NCBI GenBank assembly: GCA_964477275.1
Contig: CAYZDV010000001.1
Coordinates: forward strand, 1,002-65,001
Length of the DNA: 64,000 nt
Direction of reading: 5' to 3'
Source: an uncultured Eubacteriales bacterium
Lineage (GTDB): Bacteria; Acidobacteriota; Aminicenantia; Aminicenantales; Aminicenantaceae
A program made the translations under genes and the position numbers. The notes below the pieces were generated by a model, which was not told the DNA's origin, did no database searches, and was given only the letters and a program-made list of their open reading frames with translations. Shown in pieces: positions 5,962-22,168 of this stretch; position 1 is the stretch's first letter, and every line of letters starts with the position of its first letter.

Positions 5962-8643
5962 ATGAGTCGGCCTTCTCATTGGAAAAAGTCCATTTGTTTC
6001 ATTTTTCTCCTGACTCTGATGCTGGTCACCAGCGATTGTCGGAGAAAGGAGAGAGACGAGAACCGGCTGCCTTTCAGGAATCCCAGTCTGGGAATGGATG
6101 CCCGGGTGGATGACCTGGTTTCCCGGATGACCCTCGAGGAGAAGGTTTCCCAGCTGGTCCACGATGCAGCAGCCATCGACCGCCTCGGCATTCCCAGTTA
6201 CAACTGGTGGAATGAATGCCTGCACGGAGTGGCCAGGGCAGGGCTGGCCACGATCTTCCCTCAGGCCATTGGCCTGGCTGCGACCTGGGACACAAGGCTT
6301 CTTTTTCGGGTGGCCACAGCGATCTCTGACGAGGCCCGGGCCAAACACCATGAATTTGTCAGAAGGGGCAAGAGAGGAATCTACCAGGGGCTCACCTTCT
6401 GGTCGCCCAACATCAACATCTTCCGCGATCCTCGGTGGGGCCGGGGCATGGAAACTTACGGGGAGGACCCTTATCTTACGGCAAGGATGGCCGTCGCTTT
6501 TGTCCATGGCCTCCAGGGAGACCATTCGCATTACTTAAAAGTCGTGTCCACGCCCAAACACTTTGCGGTGCACAGCGGCCCTGAACCCGACCGTCACGCC
6601 TTCGACGCCCGGGCAGACGAGCGGGACCTCTGGGAGACTTACCTGCCGCATTTCCAGGCATGCATTGAAGAAGCAAGGGCTTATTCTGTGATGTGCGCCT
6701 ATAACAGATATATGGGAGAGGCGTGCTGCGGAAGCTCCCGTCTCCTGACCGAAATCCTTCGCGGGGAATGGGGGTTTGAGGGTTATGTGGTTTCAGACTG
6801 CGGTGCGATCAGGGACATCACCAGAGGACACCGGATCGTCGAAACCTCTCCTGAGGCCGCTGCTCTGGCCGTCAAATCGGGCTGCGACCTCAACTGCGGC
6901 AGTGAGTATAAAAGCCTGCTCGAAGCCGTTCAAAAAGAGTTGGTCACCGAAGCCGAAATCGATGTCTCGGTGAAGCGACTCTTCATGGCCAGGTTCAAGC
7001 TGGGGATGTTCGACCCGCCCCACCTCGTTTCTTACACCAGGATTCCTTATGAAATTGTCGACTGCGAGCCACACAGGCGAATGGCCCTGGAAGCGGCGAG
7101 AAAATCGATTGTGCTTTTGAAGAACGAAGGAAACATCCTTCCCCTTCCCAGGAACCTCCGGGAAATCGCTGTCATCGGGCCCAACGCGGATGACGTGGAA
7201 GTCCTCCTCGGGAATTACAACGGAAATCCTTCAGATCCGGTTACGCTCCTGCGGGGAATCCGGGAAAAGGTGTCACCATCAACCAGAGTGACTTACGCTC
7301 CGGGCTGTGAGTGGGCAGAGAATCTTCCCCGTCTTGAACCGGTTCCATCATCGGTTCTTCATGTCTCGGAGGGAAAGAAACAGGAAAAAGGCCTGAGGGG
7401 GGAATATTTCGATAACCGGGAATTCAAGGGCAAGCCTGTTTTTACCCGAATCGATAAAGAGGTCGATTTCAACTGGTGGGATGGTGCGCCCCGGCATGAC
7501 TTTGACGACGATAATTTCGGGGTGCGCTGGACAGGCTTCCTGGTCCCGCCGTCCACAGGAAAATATGCACTGGGCGGCTGGGGCTTCAACGGGTTTCGAA
7601 TTTTTCTGGAAGACGAGCTGCTGGTCCAGTTTGATGGACGACACCACCCCAACAAAACCTATGGGTGGGTCGAACTTCAGAAGGGAAAGGCTTATAAAGT
7701 GAAGGTGGAGTTTTTCGAGCGTTCAGAGGACGCCCATATTCAGCTGTTATGGTCGGTGCCCGGAGTGGACCACGAGAGAGAAGCTCTGGAGCTGGCCGGG
7801 CGGGCAGATGTGGTCATCATGGTCATGGGGCTTTCCCCCCTTCTGGAAGGCGAGGAGATGAGAGTGGACGTCGAGGGGTTCAGGGGTGGAGACAGGCTGA
7901 CTCTGGGGCTCCCGGCCATTCAGGAACGGCTGATCAGTTCCATTCATGGCCTGGAAAAACCGGTCATTCTTGTCCTGCTCAACGGAAGCGCTCTGGCGGT
8001 GAATTGGGCCGACCAGAATATCCCGGCCATCGTGGAGGCCTGGTATCCTGGACAGGCAGCCGGCCGGGCTGTCGCCGATGTCCTCTTCGGGGATTATAAT
8101 CCGGCCGGACGCCTGCCGGTGACCTTTTACAAATCCGTCGACCAGCTTCCGACTTTCGAGGATTACAGCATGAAGGGTCGGACCTATCGCTATTTCGAAG
8201 GCGAGCCGCTCTATCCATTTGGCCATGGGCTCAGCTATACCAGGTTCAGCTATTCCAACCTTGTCGTTCCCAAAACCGTCCAGCAGCGCGAATACATTCC
8301 CATCTCGGTGGATGTGCAAAACGTGGGGGAAATGGCCGGGGAGGAAGTCGTCCAGCTTTATGTGTCTGATATCGAAGCTTCGGTTCCTGTCCCTCTTCGT
8401 TCCCTGCAGGGTTTCAAAAGGGTTTTTCTCAAACCGAAAGAGAAGCGAACGATCGAATTTCTGTTTGCTCCTCGACAGATCTCTCTGCTCGATCAGGAGT
8501 TCAAGCGGGTGGTCGAACCCGGGCTGTTTGAGGTGACTGTCGGAGGCAAACAGCCCGGATTCAAAGGCACAGCCGATGCCGCGAGCACCGAGGTCCTCAC
8601 TGCCCGGTTTGAAGTCCTGGGAGAGGTCACTCCCGTCCGCTGA
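5962..8643 (+). CDS. Glycoside hydrolase family 3 beta-glucosidase/beta-xylosidase with an inserted PA14 domain; lipoprotein/secreted
   Basis: [20 protein letters not shown] and YVVSDCGAI are GH3 motifs. A PA14 insert (GEYFDN...DNFGVRWTG) and a C-terminal fibronectin-like domain are present. N-terminal signal with Cys. Confidence 0.85.
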
Positions 8644-8723
8644 CATGATGGCTCCTTCAGGCAGTTTCCATTCCTGGCCTTCCTCCAGGAATAGAGTTAT
8701 AATAAACGCTAAAAAGGTGAGAA

Positions 8724-10073
8724 GTGAAGCTGCTGAAAATCGGAATATCCGGCGTCAGGGGCATTGTCGGAGAGACCATCATCCCGGAACTGGTCATGAA
8801 TTTTGCCTCCGCCTTCGGCACCTATCTCGGCCCGAGGAGGGTTCTGGTCGGCCGGGACACCCGGCGTTCAAGCCCGATGCTTCAGGAAGCCTGCCTCTCT
8901 TCGTTGATTTCCGCCGGATGTGATGTTCTGGACCTGGGAATTTGTCCGACTCCCATCCTTCAGTACATGGTCAAGCCGCTGAAGGCCGGCGGCGCGATAT
9001 CCATCACCGCGGGGCATAACGACGTCAAGTGGAATGCCCTGGTTTTCATCAGCCAGGAGGGAACGTGCCTGGATGTCTTCCAGGGGGAGCAGGTTCTGGA
9101 CATCTATCACCTGGGAAAATTTGCCAAAGCGACGGTCGATAAACTGGGGACGGTGTCGGCCGTTGATGATTATCCGGCCGCCTACTTTGAGCAGCTCCGC
9201 CATTTTCTGGAAGCCCGGGCTGTCAAGACGGCAAATCTGAAAGTTGTCATCGATCCCTGCAATGGAGCCGGGGCCAAGATGATTGACCTCTTCGGCGAGC
9301 ACCTGGGCTTTGAACTTGTGCCGGTGAATAACGACCAAACCGGCTATTTTCCTCATGATCCTGAGCCGAGACCGAGGAATGCCCAGGAAGTGGCCTCGAT
9401 TGTGAAGATTATCAGCGCCGATGTGGGTTTTTTGCTCAACAGCGATGTGAGCCGTGTCTCCATCGTCTCGGAAACCGGTGAGACTCTCTCCGAGGAATAC
9501 ACTCTTCCCCTCGTTGCCAGTCACTACCTGAAGAAGAACCCGGGTCCGGTCATCACCAATCATTCCACTTCCCGGATGATTGACGATGTGGCCAGGCAGC
9601 ATGACTGCGAACTGGTCAAAGTGAAAGTCGGACAGCCCCATTCCATTCAGGCCCTGCTCAATGAAGAGGGCGTTTTGGCCGGCGAAGGAAGCGGAAGCGT
9701 GGCCATCCCCCGCTTCCAGCCATCCTTTGACGGGTTTTTAGTCATGGGCGTCATCCTGGAGATGATCGCCGTGCGCAAAATGGGAATTTCCCGGCTCATC
9801 GAGGAGCTTCCCAAGTACCATATCGTCAAGGAGAAAATCTACTGTCCTCCAACCAGAGTTCACACCGTGGTCAACGAAGTCAAGAAACTTTTCTCTGATC
9901 AGAAAATCAGCACCGTGGATGGGATCAAAGTGGAAGATGAGACCGGCTGGGTTCATGTCCGGGCCTCGGCCACAGAGCCGATGATCCGGGTCATCGCCGA
10001 GGACATTTCCAGAGAGAAAGCCAGGGAGAAAACCGAAGAGGTCCTCAATTTTATTTCCGCCATGGTCAAATGA
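8724..10073 (+). CDS. Phosphohexomutase-family paralog with degenerate active site (predicted pseudoenzyme)
   Basis: Alpha-D-phosphohexomutase fold (ISGVRG...). The catalytic loop reads ITAGHND instead of TASHNP, so the phosphoserine is replaced by Gly. The metal loop reads NSDVSR instead of DxDxDR. GTG start. The 3' end overlaps the next gene by ATGA. Confidence 0.7.
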   Translation: MKLLKIGISGVRGIVGETIIPELVMNFASAFGTYLGPRRVLVGRDTRRSSPMLQEACLSSLISAGCDVLDLGICPTPILQYMVKPLKAGGAISITAGHNDVKWNALVFISQEGTCLDVFQGEQVLDIYHLGKFAKATVDKLGTVSAVDDYPAAYFEQLRHFLEARAVKTANLKVVIDPCNGAGAKMIDLFGEHLGFELVPVNNDQTGYFPHDPEPRPRNAQEVASIVKIISADVGFLLNSDVSRVSIVSETGETLSEEYTLPLVASHYLKKNPGPVITNHSTSRMIDDVARQHDCELVKVKVGQPHSIQALLNEEGVLAGEGSGSVAIPRFQPSFDGFLVMGVILEMIAVRKMGISRLIEELPKYHIVKEKIYCPPTRVHTVVNEVKKLFSDQKISTVDGIKVEDETGWVHVRASATEPMIRVIAEDISREKAREKTEEVLNFISAMVK

Positions 10074-11443
10074 ACAGAACCACGTCCTTGAAAATCAGCA
10101 TCTCCGGCGTCCGGGGAGTGGTGGGCGAAAGTCTCTCTCCCCAGCTTGTTGCCAGGTTCGCCCAGGCTTTCGGCACTTATTCAGGAAGGGGAGATGTCGT
10201 CGTCGGACAGGACTCGAGGACCTCGGGCCTGATGGTCAAAAAGGCCGTCATATCCGGACTTTTATCGGTCGGATGCCGCCCCGTGGATATCGGAATCTGC
10301 CCCATCCCTTCCATCCAGATTTTTGCCAAACAGGTCAAGGCCATTGGCGGAATCGCGGTCACGGCCAGCCACAACCCCAAAGAATGGAACGGGCTGAAGT
10401 TCATCGGCAGGGAAGGGCATTTTTTGAATCATCATCAGGTGGAGGAATTTCTGGACATCTATCACCAGGGCGAGTTTTCCTTCGTGACTGTCGACGAATA
10501 CAGAATGCCGGAGTTTGAACAAAGCGCGACCGAGACTCATCTCAGCCGCCTGCTTTCCTATTTTGATGCCAACCTGATCAGCGGCAGGAGAATCAAGGTC
10601 GTTATTGATTGCGGCAACGGCGCCGGCGCGGTCCTTGCTCCCCGGTTTTTGAATGCCCTGGGCTGCGATGCGGTACTGCTGAACTGCGTTCCTGACGGAA
10701 AATTCGCCCATCAACCCGAGCCTGTCCCGGAGAACATCGCCGAGCTCTGCCAGAAGGTGGCCGAGCATAAAGCCGACGTGGGCTTTGTTCAGGATACGGA
10801 TGCGGACCGGCTGGCCGTTGTCAGCGAAAAAGGAGAGCCCCTCGGCGAGGAATGGACGCTTCTCCTGGCTGTGAAATATGTCTTGAGCAAAAATCCGGGA
10901 CCGGTGGTGGTCAATCTCTCCACTTCGAGGGCGATGGAAGATATCGCCAGGGACTATAATGTCCCTGTGATCAGGACCAGGATCGGCGAAATCAACGTCG
11001 TCGAGCAGATTCTGGCCCTGGAGGGCAATGCGGCCATCGGAGGCGAAGGAAATGGAGGTGTCATCCTCCCTGAAATTCATCCCTGCCGGGACAGCTTTGC
11101 GGCCATGGGTTTGATTCTGGAATTCATGGCATCATCCTCGAAATCCATTTCAGAGCTCCAGGGAGAATTTCCTCCCTATCACATGATCAAGGAGAAAATG
11201 GAAGGGACACAGGAGCAGGCGTATCACCTCATCAGAAAATTGCGGAGGAAATATGCGGAAACATGCGAAATATCGTTCCTGGATGGGATAATGCTTCAAT
11301 TCGACGACCACTGGGTTCATCTCAGGCCTTCCAACACCGAACCGGTCGTCCGTCTGATCGTGGAAGCCAGAAGCAGGGAAAGGGCAGAAGAGGTCATGAA
11401 CCGCTGGAAAAAAGAAATCCGGGAGATGACAGGATGGAAGTGA
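10070..11443 (+). CDS. Phosphoglucosamine mutase / phosphomannomutase (intact phosphohexomutase)
   Basis: Canonical VTASHNPKEWNG phosphoserine loop and DTDADR Mg loop. Translationally coupled to both upstream and downstream genes. Confidence 0.8.
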   Translation: MNRTTSLKISISGVRGVVGESLSPQLVARFAQAFGTYSGRGDVVVGQDSRTSGLMVKKAVISGLLSVGCRPVDIGICPIPSIQIFAKQVKAIGGIAVTASHNPKEWNGLKFIGREGHFLNHHQVEEFLDIYHQGEFSFVTVDEYRMPEFEQSATETHLSRLLSYFDANLISGRRIKVVIDCGNGAGAVLAPRFLNALGCDAVLLNCVPDGKFAHQPEPVPENIAELCQKVAEHKADVGFVQDTDADRLAVVSEKGEPLGEEWTLLLAVKYVLSKNPGPVVVNLSTSRAMEDIARDYNVPVIRTRIGEINVVEQILALEGNAAIGGEGNGGVILPEIHPCRDSFAAMGLILEFMASSSKSISELQGEFPPYHMIKEKMEGTQEQAYHLIRKLRRKYAETCEISFLDGIMLQFDDHWVHLRPSNTEPVVRLIVEARSRERAEEVMNRWKKEIREMTGWK

Positions 11444-12222
11444 TCATCGTTTCCGGTTACAACGAGGCCTGTGAGGAGGTATCCGGGCTGATCAAACAGG
11501 AATGGCAAAAAAACAAGAGGCTTGTCCTCGGGCTTCCCACCGGAAGAACTCCTCTGGGCATTTATGGAAAGCTCATCGAAATGTTCAGTAAAGGCGAAAT
11601 CGACTTTTCAGAGTTCGTCACCTTTAACCTGGATGAATACCTGGGATTGGAGGCCGACCATCCCCGGAGTTTTGCCTTTTACATGCACGAAAATTTCTTC
11701 CGCCACATCAACATCAAAAAGGAAAACATCCACCGCCTGGATGGAAAGCCTGAAGACATCGATGCCCACTGCCAGGAATACGAGGAGAAAATCAGGCGTG
11801 CGGGAAGAATCGACGTTCAAATTCTGGGTATCGGCCGGAACGGTCACATCGGCTTCAACGAGCCGAGCTCCTCGCTGGCTTCCCGAACGAGGGTCAAAAC
11901 CCTGAGGCCGGAAACCATTGAGGATAACGCCCGTTTTTTCGAGGATGAGGAAGAGATCCCCAGGTTCTGCCTGACCATGGGCATTGGAACCGTGATGGAG
12001 GCCAGGATGATCATTCTCATCGCTTCGGGAAAGAGCAAACGTCAGGCGGTTCTCAACTGCGTGGAAGGACCGGTGACGGCTTCTGTCCCGGCCTCTGTGC
12101 TCCAGCTTCATCCGCAGGCCAAGATCGTCATCGACGAAGATGCTGCATCGCTTCTGAGCGGGAAAGATTACTACAAATGGATCTACAGGAATAAATACCG
12201 CGTCAAAGATTTCTTGAAGTAA
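11434..12222 (+). CDS. nagB: Glucosamine-6-phosphate deaminase
   Basis: MEVIIV...LGLPTGRTPLGIYGKL...ILGIGRNGHIGFNEP are NagB family motifs. The ATG at 11434 overlaps the upstream stop. Confidence 0.85.
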   Translation: MEVIIVSGYNEACEEVSGLIKQEWQKNKRLVLGLPTGRTPLGIYGKLIEMFSKGEIDFSEFVTFNLDEYLGLEADHPRSFAFYMHENFFRHINIKKENIHRLDGKPEDIDAHCQEYEEKIRRAGRIDVQILGIGRNGHIGFNEPSSSLASRTRVKTLRPETIEDNARFFEDEEEIPRFCLTMGIGTVMEARMIILIASGKSKRQAVLNCVEGPVTASVPASVLQLHPQAKIVIDEDAASLLSGKDYYKWIYRNKYRVKDFLK

Positions 12223-12223
12223 A

Positions 12224-13372
12224 ATGTCTGGCTATACTCTCCTCAAGAATTGCGACATTTACACTCCTTCGAGGTTCATCGAGAACGGATGCATCCTCAT
12301 CGCGGGAGAAAGAATCGTCAGGAACGGACTACTGGAAGAGCTTGAAGTTCCCAGAGGGACGAAGGTCTTCAATTTCAGAGACCACATCGCCGTTCCGGGC
12401 TTCATCGACATTCATCTCCACGGCGGAGGGGGCCGGGATTTCATGGGTGCGACGGCGGAAGAAATAGCAGAGGCCTTGAGAGTCCATCTCAGGAACGGGA
12501 CAACCTCAGTCCTGCCCACGCTGCTCACAGACTCGCATGAGCGAATGCTCTCCACGATCAAAACTCTCCTCGAAGTGCAGAAAAAAGCTGAGGACATCCC
12601 GGAAATTATCGGGTTGAACCTGGAAGGTCCTTATATTTCCAGAGAAAAAAGCGGTGCTCAGTTGACAAAATACATCCGCAGGCCGTCTCTTCCGGAGCTG
12701 AAAGAGTACATCGAGACTTCGGAGGGGAAGGTTAAAATTCTGACCGTTGCTCCGGAAATCGAGGGAGCTCCGGCTGTGATCCGCTTTCTGACCGAAAAAG
12801 GAGTCATTCCCTCAGCCGGACACACCAACGCCACCTTTGAGCAGATGGAAAAGGCCATCAAATCGGGCATCCGGCTGGGCGTTCATCTCTTCAATGCCAT
12901 GAGGGGCATCGCTCACCGCGAGCCCGGGGCTGCCGGCGCCTTGCTTTTGAACGATGAGGTCTATGTCGAAGTCGTGGCCGACGGAGTCCATCTCCATCCT
13001 TCCATCCTCAGGCTGATCACCAGGGTGAAGCCCGCAGGAAAAATCATTCTGGTCACCGACGCCACCAGGTTTTACGGGTTCAGGAAAGGCCCGACTTACA
13101 ACAGAGCCGGAAGGCTTTTTGGCAGCAACACGCCCCTCTGGTTTGCACTGAGCAACATGATTCAGTATACAGAGATGTCGTTCAGGCAGCTCGTGAAAAC
13201 CGTCACCTCCAACCCTGCCCGGCTTCTGGGGATCCAAGCCCGAAAGGGTTGCCTCAGAAGGAGAAGCGATGCCGACATCGTGCTCCTGGACAGAGAGCTG
13301 AAGGTGAAACACGTGTTTATCCGGGGGAAGAAAGTCCACCTCGCCCCGGGCAGCTCGCGGCCGCCGGCCTGA
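12224..13372 (+). CDS. nagA: N-acetylglucosamine-6-phosphate deacetylase
   Basis: PGFIDIHLHGGGG and GVHLFNAM motifs of the NagA amidohydrolase. Starts 1 nt after the nagB stop. Confidence 0.85.
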   Translation: MSGYTLLKNCDIYTPSRFIENGCILIAGERIVRNGLLEELEVPRGTKVFNFRDHIAVPGFIDIHLHGGGGRDFMGATAEEIAEALRVHLRNGTTSVLPTLLTDSHERMLSTIKTLLEVQKKAEDIPEIIGLNLEGPYISREKSGAQLTKYIRRPSLPELKEYIETSEGKVKILTVAPEIEGAPAVIRFLTEKGVIPSAGHTNATFEQMEKAIKSGIRLGVHLFNAMRGIAHREPGAAGALLLNDEVYVEVVADGVHLHPSILRLITRVKPAGKIILVTDATRFYGFRKGPTYNRAGRLFGSNTPLWFALSNMIQYTEMSFRQLVKTVTSNPARLLGIQARKGCLRRRSDADIVLLDRELKVKHVFIRGKKVHLAPGSSRPPA

Positions 13373-14351: not shown

Positions 14352-15797
14352 ATGAATACGAAACATCTGAAAGGTTTGATGGGCCTTTGGGTTCCTGTTT
14401 TTTTCTTTTTGACTCTGGTCACTTGCTCGACGCAGAAGGATGAATCAGCCGGGGTTCGAAGCGGCAGAGAGAGAGTCGCTTCTGAATCAAAGGAGGAGAG
14501 GGACAGGCGGATGGCCTGGTGGAGAGAGGCGCGCTTTGGCCTGTTCATCCACTGGGGCCTTTATGCCCTGCCGGCCGGAGAATGGAAAGGAGAGACGCGC
14601 CATGGCGAATGGATCCTCCATACCGCGCAAATCCCGGTGGAGGAATACGAAAAATTTGCCACCCGGTTCAATCCTGTCCGGTTCAACGCCGCTCAGTGGG
14701 TGAGGCTGGCCAGGGAAGCGGGAATGAAATACATCGTCATCACCAGCAAGCACCACGACGGGTTCTGCCTCTTCGACTCGCGCCTTACCGAATACGATGT
14801 GAAGGATGCCACGCCCTTTAAGAGGGACATCCTGAAGGAGCTTGCCCGGGAATGCCATCAACAGGGAATCCAGATCTGCTGGTACTATTCCATCATGGAC
14901 TGGCATCATCCGGACTACCTTCCGCGCCGCAACTGGGAGACGCGGCCGGCGGAAAGTGCGGACTTCAATCGCTATATCGCTTATATGAAAGGACAGGTCA
15001 AGGAGTTACTCACAAACTATGGAGAAGTCGGCGTCCTCTGGTTCGACGGTGAATGGGAGGACACCTGGGACCATGAAAAGGGGGATGACCTCTACCGCTA
15101 TGTCCGTTCTCTTTCTCCCGGAATCATTATCAACAACCGGGTGGGCAAAGGAAGAGCGGGTATGGCCGGTACCTTCGACCCCGCCAAGGCAGCCGGAGAC
15201 TTCGGCACTCCCGAGCAGGAAATCCCGCTCACAGGCCTGGATTATGACTGGGAAACCTGCATGACCATGAATGACCACTGGGGATACAACGCGCATAATG
15301 CGAACTGGAAATCGACCGAAGACTTGATCCGCAAGCTGGTGGATATTGCCAGCAAGGGAGGAAATTTTCTTCTTAACGTTGGACCCACGGCTGAAGGATT
15401 GATTCCTGAACCGAGCGTGGAGAGGCTGGCCGCCATCGGCCGATGGATGAAGGTCAACGGAGAGAGCATTTACGGCACCACGGCAAGCCTGTTCTCTGAG
15501 CTGGGTTGGGGCCGCAGCACGACGAAGGGAAACAAGATATTCCTCCATGTTTTTGACTGGCCGGAGGAGAGAGAGCTGCATCTTCCGGGTCTTATCAGCA
15601 GGCCTGAGGCAGCCTTTTTCCTTGCCGACCCCGCACAAAAACTGAAGATGGATGAGAGGAACGGGGAGGCTTTCGTTCTCCTGCCGGAGAAAGCTCCGGA
15701 TCCGGCTGTTTCGGTCATCGCGCTCGAGTTTGGAGAAAGGCCGGAAGTGGCGAGATCGCCTTCAATCATCCCTCATGATGCTGGTGTTTGGCGGTGA
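14352..15797 (+). CDS. Alpha-L-fucosidase, glycoside hydrolase family 29, secreted
   Basis: WWREARFGLFIHWGLYA...ITSKHHDGFCLFDS...WYYSIMDWHHPDY are GH29 hallmarks. Confidence 0.85.
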   Translation: MNTKHLKGLMGLWVPVFFFLTLVTCSTQKDESAGVRSGRERVASESKEERDRRMAWWREARFGLFIHWGLYALPAGEWKGETRHGEWILHTAQIPVEEYEKFATRFNPVRFNAAQWVRLAREAGMKYIVITSKHHDGFCLFDSRLTEYDVKDATPFKRDILKELARECHQQGIQICWYYSIMDWHHPDYLPRRNWETRPAESADFNRYIAYMKGQVKELLTNYGEVGVLWFDGEWEDTWDHEKGDDLYRYVRSLSPGIIINNRVGKGRAGMAGTFDPAKAAGDFGTPEQEIPLTGLDYDWETCMTMNDHWGYNAHNANWKSTEDLIRKLVDIASKGGNFLLNVGPTAEGLIPEPSVERLAAIGRWMKVNGESIYGTTASLFSELGWGRSTTKGNKIFLHVFDWPEERELHLPGLISRPEAAFFLADPAQKLKMDERNGEAFVLLPEKAPDPAVSVIALEFGERPEVARSPSIIPHDAGVWR

Positions 15798-16026
15798 TGA
15801 TCACCTGCTTCATCCCAGCTTCCTGGCACACTCTGATCCACTGGCGAGCATCCAGGGCCGTGGGATTGAAAAGTGTCGGGCCTTCCTCTCCTGTCCCCCA
15901 TTCCCGGTCTGTAAAAGTGTTGATCCCGAAATGGAGAAAAGCACTGAACTCCATCTCCTGCCAGGATATCTGCCGGGAGAAGGGGACACCCCATGCCACC
16001 CATCCTCTTTCTCCATTACCCAACAA
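15766..16026 (-). pseudogene. Truncated GH29 alpha-L-fucosidase fragment (N-terminal catalytic-domain remnant)
   Basis: FSAFLHFGINTFTDREWGTGEE...ARQWIRVCQEAGMKQVIITAKHQHHEG matches the GH29 N-terminal region. It runs antisense into the 3' end of the intact GH29 gene, so it cannot be full length. Confidence 0.5.
15983..16006 (+). repeat. GC-rich repeat family B, copy 1 (GGGGACACCCCATGCCACCCATCC)
   Basis: The same 22-24 nt core recurs at 24167-24188 and 51707-51730. It contains the GGGGTGTCCCC mini-hairpin. Confidence 0.55.
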
Positions 16027-16213: not shown

Positions 16214-16570
16214 ATGAATAATAGAACATTCTGTTTCCTTCTTTTTTTGCTCTGCGCCTCATCGGTTGCTTTTGCCGGTGAGGCAGCGGGAGAAAGCGCG
16301 GCTGGCGAGATCGAGATGCCGAGGCCAGAATATCCCCGGCCCCAGTTTGTCAGGCCGGAATGTGTGAATCCGGACGGGAAATGGACATTTGCCTTTGATT
16401 TGGGAAAATCCGGAAAAGAACGAGGCCTCAGCCGGAGCCGGCGAATTGAAAGAGAGATCCTCGTCCCCCTCTGTTATGAAGGCCAGCCCGATATCGTCGA
16501 TGAATACGGGGGGATCAAGTGGATCTTCAGCAAGCTGCAGATAACAAAACGGGGAGAAGAGGGGGGATGA
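16214..16570 (+). pseudogene. Short secreted ORF resembling the N-terminus of a glycoside hydrolase (possible truncated remnant)
   Basis: Signal peptide, then PEYPRPQFVRPE...W.F.FD, a pattern typical of GH2-like N-terminal sugar-binding domains. It ends after 118 aa, and its stop overlaps the start of the next gene. AAGGAG RBS before the ATG at 16214. Confidence 0.3.
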
Positions 16571-17601
16571 AAATGGGCATCGGATGGAAGCCGCCGGATG
16601 ACTGGAGAGTAATCACCACCATTGACGCCCATGCGGCCGGCGAGCCGCTGAGAGTGGTGACCGGAGGTCTGGAGGAAATCCCAGGAAAAACCATCCTGGA
16701 AAAAAGACGCTACGCCATGGAGCATCTGGATGATATTCGCACAGGGCTATTGTGGGAGCCCAGGGGCCATGCGGACATGTACGGCGCAATCATCACCGAA
16801 CCGGTCACTGCAGATGGTGACCTGGGCGTGCTGTTCATGCACAACGAGGGATTCAGCACTATGTGCGGTCACGGAGTCATCGCTTTGACCAAGGTCGCTC
16901 TGGATACAGGGCTGATTATCAAGCGGGGCGGTGAGCCGGTTTTGAACCTGGATACGCCGGCCGGAAGGGTCACGGTTAGGGCACACAGGGAAAAAAGCGA
17001 GGTCGAGGAGGTGTCCTTCCAGAACGTTCCTTCCTTTGTTTACAAGCGGAATCAGATGATCGAACTCGCAGAATTCGGGACGGTCCAGTACGACGTCGCT
17101 TTCGGAGGAGCATTCTATGCCTTCTGCCAGGCAGAAGAGCTTCAGCTCGGCCTTGAGCCCGGAGATTTCCAGAGCCTGCGCCATGCCGGACAGCGGATCA
17201 AGCAAGCGGTGATGGAGAGCCTGGACATCGAACATCCATACGAGAGAGACCTCGGGTTTCTTTATGGAACCATCTTTGTTGGGCCGGCCAGAGACCCATC
17301 CCACCACAGTCGCAATGTATGTGTTTTCGCCGATGGGGAGGTGGACCGGTCTCCCACCGGAACCGGGGTCAGCGCCCGCGCCGCCATCCACCATGACCAG
17401 GGAGAGCTGGACATCGGAAAGTCCATCACCATCGAGAGCATTCTGGACACCTGTTTTGAGGTGAAGATCGTCAAAGCCGTTGACTTTGGAGTCTACAGGG
17501 CAGTGATTCCAGAGGTCACAGGAAGCGCTCACATCACGGGCCAGAGCATCTTCTGCTTTGATCCCGCCGATCCCTTGAAAAAAGGCTTTATTTTCCGGTA
17601 G
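16567..17601 (+). CDS. Proline racemase family enzyme, predicted trans-3-hydroxy-L-proline dehydratase (Cys/Thr catalytic pair)
   Basis: HAAGEPLRVVTGG...FSTMCGHG keeps the first catalytic Cys. The second catalytic position reads DRSPTGTGVSA, with Thr instead of Cys, which is the signature of the dehydratase subfamily. Confidence 0.7.
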   Translation: MKMGIGWKPPDDWRVITTIDAHAAGEPLRVVTGGLEEIPGKTILEKRRYAMEHLDDIRTGLLWEPRGHADMYGAIITEPVTADGDLGVLFMHNEGFSTMCGHGVIALTKVALDTGLIIKRGGEPVLNLDTPAGRVTVRAHREKSEVEEVSFQNVPSFVYKRNQMIELAEFGTVQYDVAFGGAFYAFCQAEELQLGLEPGDFQSLRHAGQRIKQAVMESLDIEHPYERDLGFLYGTIFVGPARDPSHHSRNVCVFADGEVDRSPTGTGVSARAAIHHDQGELDIGKSITIESILDTCFEVKIVKAVDFGVYRAVIPEVTGSAHITGQSIFCFDPADPLKKGFIFR

Positions 17602-17631
17602 GCTCTGGATGATTGCCGTGGAACGGAAAAC

Positions 17632-22168
<4,537 letters not shown>

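Follow-up and report, generated by a model that had tools for sequence, protein, structure and literature searches.

Organization of the Locus and Family Assignment

The window analyzed here, a stretch of 64,000 nucleotides from contig CAYZDV010000001.1 (assembly GCA_964477275.1, an uncultured bacterium placed by GTDB in the Aminicenantaceae), carries two adjacent genes for archaeal-type phosphohexomutases, designated gene A (upstream) and gene B (downstream). Gene B encodes an intact enzyme, whereas gene A encodes a full-length paralog in which the catalytic serine and further catalytic residues are replaced. As judged from homology, from these missing residues and from purifying selection across species, A is very probably a pseudoenzyme. 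The positions of the genes and of their active-site loops are summarized in Table 1.

Genes A, B, nagB and nagA form a single tightly packed block on one strand, since A overlaps B, B overlaps nagB, and the nagB stop codon and the nagA start codon are separated by 1 nt. The stop codon of B (TGA, 11441–11443) overlaps the start of nagB by 10 nt if ATG at 11434 is used, or by 4 nt if GTG at 11440 is used. Both overlaps, at 10070–10073 and 11434–11443, agree with the original prediction, which was made from the letters of the window. When the whole window was searched by tblastn with A and B for a second mutase, A and B alone were matched.

Table 1. Positions of genes and sequence features of the A–B locus in the window.
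Feature	Position	Strand	Remarks
Gene A	8724–10073	+	GTG start, 449 aa; degenerate archaeal-type GlmM/PGM paralog
A loop 1, TAGHND	9006–9023	+	Gly97 (GGG, 9012–9014) at the phosphoserine position; His98 and Asn99 kept
A residue 107, Val	9042–9044	+	Lys of NG[ILF]K in intact relatives; T/A/S/V in the A clade
A loop 2, NSDVSR	9438–9455	+	aligned to DGDADR; first and third metal-binding Asp gone
A loop 3, GEGSGS, sugar-binding	9681–9698	+	kept; Glu321 97% conserved; Asn to Ser at 323 invariant in the clade
A loop 4, RASATEP, phosphate-binding	9960–9980	+	kept; R413, S415, T417, E418 and P419 invariant
Gene B	10070–11443	+	457 aa; intact archaeal-type phosphoglucosamine/hexose mutase
B loop 1, TASHNP, catalytic Ser	10361–10378	+	read from sequence
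B loop 2, DTDADR, metal-binding	10793–10810	+	read from sequence
ATGA, overlap of A stop and B start	10070–10073	+	read from sequence; translational coupling
nagB, glucosamine-6-phosphate deaminase	11434–12222	+	NF001684, 335 bits (cutoff 326); TIGR00502, 305.6 bits
nagA, N-acetylglucosamine-6-phosphate deacetylase	12224–13372	+	TIGR00221, 292.6 bits (cutoff 225.65)
Putative Shine-Dalgarno sequence, AAGGTGA	8714–8720	+	3 nt 5' of the GTG of A; presumed ribosome-binding role
GH3 + PA14 glycosidase	5962–8643	+	Pfam matches; 80 nt 5' of A; operon membership uncertain

The two proteins share 42% identity, and all four Pfam domains of the family (PGM_PMM_I, II, III and IV) were found above cutoffs in both. 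The best NCBIfam model for each was TIGR03990, the equivalog model of archaeal-type phosphoglucosamine mutase, against which B scored 502.6 bits and A 422.7 bits; with a curated cutoff of 439, B lies above the threshold and A below it. A model of A predicted with AlphaFold2 (AF2) reached a predicted local distance difference test score (pLDDT) of 90.2 and a predicted template modeling score of 0.91. This model matched archaeal phosphoglucomutase/phosphomannomutase (PGM/PMM) structures with template modeling scores of 0.87–0.90 (0.90 to 9du5) at 28–34% identity. The low-confidence part consists of the first ~20 residues (8724–8783), with a mean pLDDT of 34 for residues 1–10 and 59 for residues 11–20, and contains the conserved GISGVRG loop. 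The N-terminus itself (MKLLKIGISG) is conserved among orthologs, some of which start with ATG.

In its four-domain fold and in its sugar- and phosphate-binding loops, A resembles the archaeal-type enzymes of known structure, namely 1wqa (P. horikoshii), 9du5 (T. kodakarensis TK1108) and 2f7l (S. tokodaii). It differs from them in lacking the phosphoserine, two Mg ligands and a conserved Lys; moreover, the characterized archaeal-type mutases are homo-oligomers made from one gene, whereas two genes are present here. Because two defining catalytic features of the alpha-D-phosphohexomutase superfamily (the phosphoserine and the D-x-D-x-D-R loop) are missing and the TIGR03990 score falls under the cutoff, the label of phosphoglucosamine mutase is not appropriate for A. 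It is appropriate for B, in which the loop 1 phosphoserine, the D-x-D-x-D-R loop and both binding loops are found; B is most likely a mutase interconverting glucosamine 6-phosphate (GlcN-6-P) and glucosamine 1-phosphate (GlcN-1-P).

Active-Site Residues

The active-site positions of A were set by alignment to the solved structures 1wqa and 9du5. As had been expected by the original prediction, Gly97 was aligned with the catalytic Ser and NSDVSR with DGDADR. That prediction had read the two loops of A as a loss of both the phosphorylatable Ser and the Mg-binding aspartates. The first part stands, whereas the second holds for two of the three aspartates (D239 to N, D243 to S), since the middle one, D241, is invariant in the clade, as is R244. 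An additional catalytic loss, beyond those previously noted, affects the Lys of the NG[ILF]K motif, which is present in 120 of 122 intact relatives and replaced by Val in A. B was canonical in loops 1 and 2, as had been claimed, and equally so in its remaining loops (NGLKF, GEGNGG and RPSNTEP).

The clade of A was further compared with the 122 intact relatives at the 61 positions that are at least 90% conserved among them. Forty-five of these positions were kept and 16 were changed, the changes including S97G, P100D, K107T (Val in the window), D239N, D243S, E304Q, N323S and R335F. Changes were concentrated on the phosphoryl-transfer machinery (S97G, P100D, K107T, D239N and D243S). In contrast to these, R12, H98, N99, D241, R244, R413, S415, T417 and E418 are invariant throughout the clade, with E321 close to invariant (Table 1).

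Conservation of A

Absence of the Ser could in principle reflect a sequencing or assembly artifact, or a recent inactivated duplicate heading for loss. These explanations were refuted by the codon, by conservation and by the mode of selection, and next to no chance is left to them. The Gly codon of A is GGG, so that any Ser codon is at least two substitutions away, and Gly occupies the Ser position in all 115 full-length close homologs of A (~60–78% identity, named as Aminicenantes where the source gives a name), with GGC, GGG and GGA codons among orthologs. A sequencing error restoring the Ser, which had been named as a way in which the original prediction could fail, is thus contradicted. 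In addition, the upstream lineage stands apart from the downstream one in 99 of 100 bootstraps and occurs in records labeled with several phyla.

Ratios of nonsynonymous to synonymous substitution rates (dN/dS) were calculated by the Nei-Gojobori method. For the least-saturated ortholog pairs (dS 0.44–0.55), they were 0.09–0.11 for A and 0.10–0.14 for B. Mean dN over 300 pairs was 0.278 for A and 0.287 for B, and mean protein distances were 0.376, 0.400 and 0.682 for A, B and NagA, respectively. The claim that the upstream copy is full-length, intact and conserved was therefore borne out, with 449 residues, four domains, Gly in 115/115 homologs and a dN/dS of about 0.1. On this basis, A is very probably a functional protein under selection that does not act as a classical mutase.

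A few A-clade copies appear damaged, which is the one observation in favor of decay. The copy at locus L020 (4557–5678, 248-nt gap to B) looks truncated, and those at L097 (2574–4001) and in record P0122 (out-of-frame stretch) appear frameshifted. These cases, rare relative to the intact copies, may represent occasional decay or assembly errors.

Occurrence of the A–B Pair in Other Genomes

An alignment scan for the A clade, with one genome per GTDB species, yielded 79 loci, for which residue states were read by alignment-column extraction; taxon names of loci are given as in the source records. A degenerate copy was found at 77 of the 79 loci, and at 66 of these 77 an intact copy followed 3' on the same strand. 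All 71 intact downstream copies were identical at the key sites (Ser, D-D-D and Lys). Among the 66 pairs, the two genes overlapped in 27; the gap was 60 nt or less in 46 and exceeded 200 nt in 16. At Aminicenantes-type loci with both copies, overlap was observed in 22 of 28 (of the 4-nt kind in 12) and a gap of 21 nt or less in 5 more. The translational coupling of A to its intact sibling that had been proposed from the ATGA overlap is thus a recurring arrangement at loci of this type; a 4-nt overlap was likewise seen at three Armatimonadota/Acidobacteriota loci (L034, L057 and L067).

Eleven loci had a degenerate copy lacking a detected partner, and eight of them were counted as contig ends. 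At five of them a contig end lies less than 500 nt from the degenerate copy. At L041 the start of a B-like gene follows a GH3 gene at the contig edge, at L058 the contig stops within a GH3 gene, and at L070 the neighboring copy deviates at the Lys only. At the remaining three (L031, L040 and L079), an intact copy was absent within ~6 kb.

To counter the bias introduced by an A query, the reverse test was carried out on 58 metagenome contigs anchored on B with at least 1400 nt of sequence 5' of B. A Ser-less copy was found 5' of B at 54 of these 58 loci, including all Aminicenantes-like ones (23/23). At the other four, an A-like fragment at the contig end was observed in two, and no such copy was found within 4 kb at L115 and L117. 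Both scans thus agree with the expectation of the original prediction that the same pair would recur in other genomes (66 of 77 GTDB-species loci, 54 of 58 B-anchored loci), and absence or decay of the upstream copy in relatives, which would have spoken against it, was contradicted by the 23/23 count. In total, the pair was present in Acidobacteriota (including Aminicenantes), Armatimonadota, Omnitrophota and Kiritimatiellia.

Some labels disagree with sequence similarity (records P0039 and P0116; loci L003, L005, L006, L016, L019, L027 and L035). A-clade proteins 61–72% identical to that of the window bear the names 'Candidatus Heimdallarchaeota archaeon', 'Armatimonadetes bacterium' and 'uncultured Eubacteriales bacterium'; such discordant labels are probably binning or naming errors. 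At L061 (7344–10010), the B ortholog is an open reading frame (ORF) of 889 aa, with an extra C-terminal part of ~430 aa unlike A, B, NagA, NagB or a mutase; a fusion, loss of the stop codon or misassembly could explain this extension.

Two Lineages and Graded Loss of Catalytic Residues

In a neighbor-joining tree with representatives included, 31 upstream copies were separated from 29 downstream copies in 99 of 100 bootstraps. This split indicates that the A/B duplication is old and that the pair was inherited or transferred as a unit, rather than produced by repeated recent tandem duplications. Within the upstream lineage support was low (35/100 for the extended set).

As shown in Table 2, catalytic residues have been lost to different degrees among upstream copies. 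In most copies of the Chthonomonadales type, D to N is the sole catalytic change; other Acidobacteriota show S to G together with D to E, and in records of Aminicenantes and Kiritimatiellia/Lentisphaerota the Asp loop is lost in addition to the change of S to G. This graded degeneration is confined to the upstream lineage, the downstream copy being canonical in 71 of 71 cases.

Table 2. Catalytic motifs of upstream or lone copies in different lineages.
Copy	Loop 1	Loop 2	Lys of NG[ILF]K
Upstream, Omnitrophota	TASHND (intact)	DADVDR (intact)	kept
Upstream, Armatimonadota/Chthonomonadales	TGSHND or TGGHND	NxDGDR	kept
Upstream, Pyrinomonadaceae, Terriglobia, Vicinamibacterales and other Acidobacteriota	TAGHNP	DADGER	kept
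Upstream, Aminicenantes	xAGHNx	[NS]SDx[SG]R	lost
Upstream, Kiritimatiellia	ISGGHNQ	SSDMGR	
Lone, Victivallis vadensis	ITGGHQS	NRDLSR	

In two Omnitrophota metagenome-assembled genomes (L029, 6001–8725; L030, 2873–5597), both copies are catalytically intact, the downstream one with TASHNP/DADADR, and this pair may represent the state that preceded catalytic loss in the upstream copy. The Ser-less copy of Victivallis vadensis (L081, 7001–8374, GCA_944389825.1) adjoins enolase and is annotated as 'hypothetical protein'; an intact mutase was absent within 7 kb of it. The graded loss of residues within one lineage offers a view of stages between an enzyme paralog and a pseudoenzyme. As V. vadensis is a cultured species, it is a possible experimental system, and A and B should express easily.

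Genomic Context

Linkage to nagB or nagA was observed at Aminicenantes-type loci only, in the orders A–B–nagB–nagA, A–B–nagB or A–B–nagA, and one Aminicenantes locus (L001) carries the pair without either gene. In Kiritimatiellia, tatA/tatC are followed by the pair and then by a GT2 glycosyltransferase and an epimerase. In many loci of Pyrinomonadaceae and other Acidobacteriota, the two copies flank an inserted gene, and gaps of ~1.0–1.2 kb were found at L051, L053, L060, L063–L065, L068, L069, L076, L078 and L080. A GH3 glycosidase gene separates the copies in L041 and L077 and stands between or beside them at further Pyrinomonadaceae loci. On a complete Acidobacteriota chromosome (L062), an SMP-30/gluconolactonase-like (SGL) gene (7414–8349) lies between the copies, with a divergent GH20 hexosaminidase 5' and an HGSNAT-like acetyltransferase 3'.

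The shared theme of these contexts is hexosamine and cell-envelope sugar metabolism, which fits the assignment of B as a GlcN-6-P/GlcN-1-P mutase. The setting within an aminosugar catabolic operon, as originally proposed, was found at Aminicenantes-type loci but is not a general feature, the contexts in Kiritimatiellia and other Acidobacteriota being different. By these comparisons, the A–B pairing is much older and wider than its linkage to nagB/nagA and is not specific to such an operon.

Possible Role of A

The favored reading, which is given about an even chance, is that A is a non-catalytic, ligand-binding partner of B, most likely in a hetero-oligomer. A is an old paralog of the archaeal-type mutase with an enzyme-like fold; having lost the Ser nucleophile, the conserved Lys and two of its three Mg ligands, it would be incapable of ping-pong catalysis through a phosphoserine. 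Owing to the same losses, the Aminicenantes form is unlikely to be a classical mutase of switched specificity, which had been offered as one explanation of the pair. Since the sugar- and phosphate-binding loops are kept, binding of a hexosamine or hexose phosphate or bisphosphate is probable. A and B are encoded in overlapping frames and made together, and in a mixed oligomer with B, A would be the non-catalytic subunit and adjust the activity, stability, activation state or substrate preference of B. In the Aminicenantes-type operon, the pair would act at the GlcN-6-P branch point, where NagA would make GlcN-6-P, NagB would direct it to glycolysis, and B to UDP-N-acetylglucosamine. Ligand binding, physical association of A with B, a regulatory role and the substrate of B are what we infer from the data above.

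A functional model for such a partnership is available in Firmicutes, where the ADP-glucose pyrophosphorylase genes glgC and glgD are neighbors. GlgC and GlgD, an active and an inactive paralog, form a heterotetramer in which catalytic efficiency is increased and regulation and substrate selectivity are altered (PMC9093745). The small and large subunits of plant ADP-glucose pyrophosphorylase are comparable. The same gene arrangement, with adjacent, co-oriented and co-inherited intact and degenerate paralogs, was found for A and B. The fold and reaction of GlgC/GlgD are unrelated, and the complex is experimentally established there but proposed here.

Within the phosphohexomutase fold, vertebrate PGM5 (aciculin) is inactive with substrate binding intact (PMC7761743), a likeness that is proposed for A. 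Unlike A, PGM5 retains the phosphoserine and the metal site (PMC7761743); it is also eukaryotic, associated with the cytoskeleton, and neither located beside an active paralog nor a known partner of one, whereas A is bacterial and paired.

The closest solved structure, PGM/PMM of T. kodakarensis, is a stable D2 homotetramer, whose principal dimer interface includes N15, E16 and E21, right after the Arg-bearing GVRG loop (PMC11940775). The low-pLDDT N-terminal segment of A matches this interface segment. The Arg of the GVRG loop is generally held to be catalytic. For PGM1, a catalytic role of this Arg has been proposed (PMC7761743). By analogy, the position of the interface beside the Arg loop is a possible route by which one subunit could reach the active site of the other.

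Several points weigh against this partnership. Contact between A and B was observed in none of the present results, and the substrate of B was assigned from its hidden Markov model equivalog score by itself. In the mirror-tree comparison, the correlation between A and B (r = 0.94) was no higher than those of A or B with NagA/NagB (0.93–0.96), and so no co-evolution signal specific to A and B was obtained. Interface residues of the T. kodakarensis tetramer, taken from the supplement of the paper, were mapped onto A and B with an ambiguous outcome: the E22/K135 salt-bridge pair is present in upstream copies, whereas its acidic half has been lost from downstream ones, a pattern in which homo- and hetero-oligomers are not separable. 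The Ser-less copies at L040 and L079 and in Victivallis vadensis (L081), with no intact copy within ~6–7 kb, indicate that the protein can persist in the absence of tight linkage. Finally, with its Lys and a D-D-E metal loop retained, the Acidobacteriota form may still carry out residual or different chemistry.

When considering other roles, the same lone copies, together with invariant binding loops in a protein devoid of catalytic residues, would suit a stand-alone sugar-phosphate sensor or regulator directed at a target other than B, such as NagB, a transporter, a signaling enzyme or transcription. Here the mutase fold would serve as a ligand- and protein-binding module only. A precedent exists among the fold matches of A, in the B. 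subtilis complexes of GlmM with the cyclic di-AMP cyclase CdaA (7olh, 7ojs and 9g69), in which a GlmM protein is bound to another enzyme. GlmM acts as a regulator of CdaA in this complex; unlike A, it belongs to the bacterial type (TIGR01455) and is intact in its catalytic residues. At the loci with annotated neighbors, no gene for a diadenylate cyclase adjoined A. B is the sole partner gene conserved across phyla, whereas nagB/nagA, GH3, SGL and tat genes vary with lineage, and start/stop overlap with B is the commonest arrangement in Aminicenantes. A sensor independent of B is accordingly regarded as rather unlikely, and so is the purely modular use of the fold that it entails.

A could also still be an enzyme, using another nucleophile, direct transfer or a new activity on the same ligands. 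Such an activity might hydrolyze a sugar bisphosphate through water occupying the space vacated by the change of Ser to Gly. Constraint on A equals that on real enzymes, and the Acidobacteriota form lacks the Ser only, with the Lys, His, Arg and D-D-E metal loop kept. The S108A variant of P. aeruginosa PMM/PGM is reported to retain a few percent of activity, an observation attributed to Naught et al. in 2003; a literature search on the activity of this variant yielded a structure legend only. The clade of the window, in contrast, has additionally lost two metal ligands and the conserved Lys, and none of the positions at which the A clade departs from conserved residues of intact relatives offered a candidate for a new nucleophile. 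Furthermore, the set of catalytic residues lost varies between lineages in spite of the conservation of the protein, which fits dispensable catalysis better than one new chemistry. Retained or new catalysis is therefore considered improbable, and bisphosphate hydrolysis, as its example, equally so; it would be most plausible for the Acidobacteriota form and least plausible for that of the window.

Extending the partnership of A with B beyond this locus, the whole upstream lineage might constitute an unrecognized, phylum-spanning family of pseudo-phosphohexomutases that are obligate hetero-oligomers with a GlmM-type mutase. Their dead but ligand-binding site would serve in allosteric sensing or hold a reserve of bisphosphate activator, gating GlcN-6-P between NagB and the envelope. 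The series from Omnitrophota to Aminicenantes/Kiritimatiellia would then record the conversion of an enzyme into a regulatory subunit. This extension is put forward tentatively, as a speculation that is more doubtful than the pairing on which it builds. If A is a subunit or sensor of a GlmM-type mutase, control would be added at the GlcN-6-P branch point that feeds peptidoglycan and lipopolysaccharide synthesis.

A pseudoenzyme paralog beside its active sibling is an already known arrangement. In a literature search of incomplete coverage, which amounts to absence of evidence, neither this gene pair nor any bacterial member of the alpha-D-phosphohexomutase superfamily that is Ser-less or inactive was found to have been described, and a search for GlmM in Aminicenantes/Acidobacteria and for links to nag operons returned no relevant paper. 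In public records, A-clade proteins are named 'phosphoglucosamine mutase' or 'phosphomannomutase'. Because of these names, metabolic reconstructions may list as an enzyme a protein that cannot function as one; this concerns Aminicenantes and other Acidobacteriota as well as Armatimonadota and Kiritimatiellia.

Other Features of the Window

A scan for promoters and terminators gave counts near chance, with nothing convincing in the interval between the GH3 gene and A, and neither Rfam families nor tRNAs were detected in the window. Genes for a DUF3078 outer-membrane protein and a GH29 fucosidase (Pfam assignments) were found 3' of the nag genes. Further genes at 16519–22168 encode a proline racemase-like protein, a radical SAM/SPASM protein and a large GH2 beta-galactosidase; together with the GH3, GH29 and nag genes, they look like a glycan-utilization neighborhood. 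Just 3' of the GH29 gene, a minus-strand ORF of 86 aa (15766–16026) shows 33% identity over 87 aa to the N-terminal part of the adjacent fucosidase; it possibly represents the remains or a piece of another fucosidase gene in inverted orientation.

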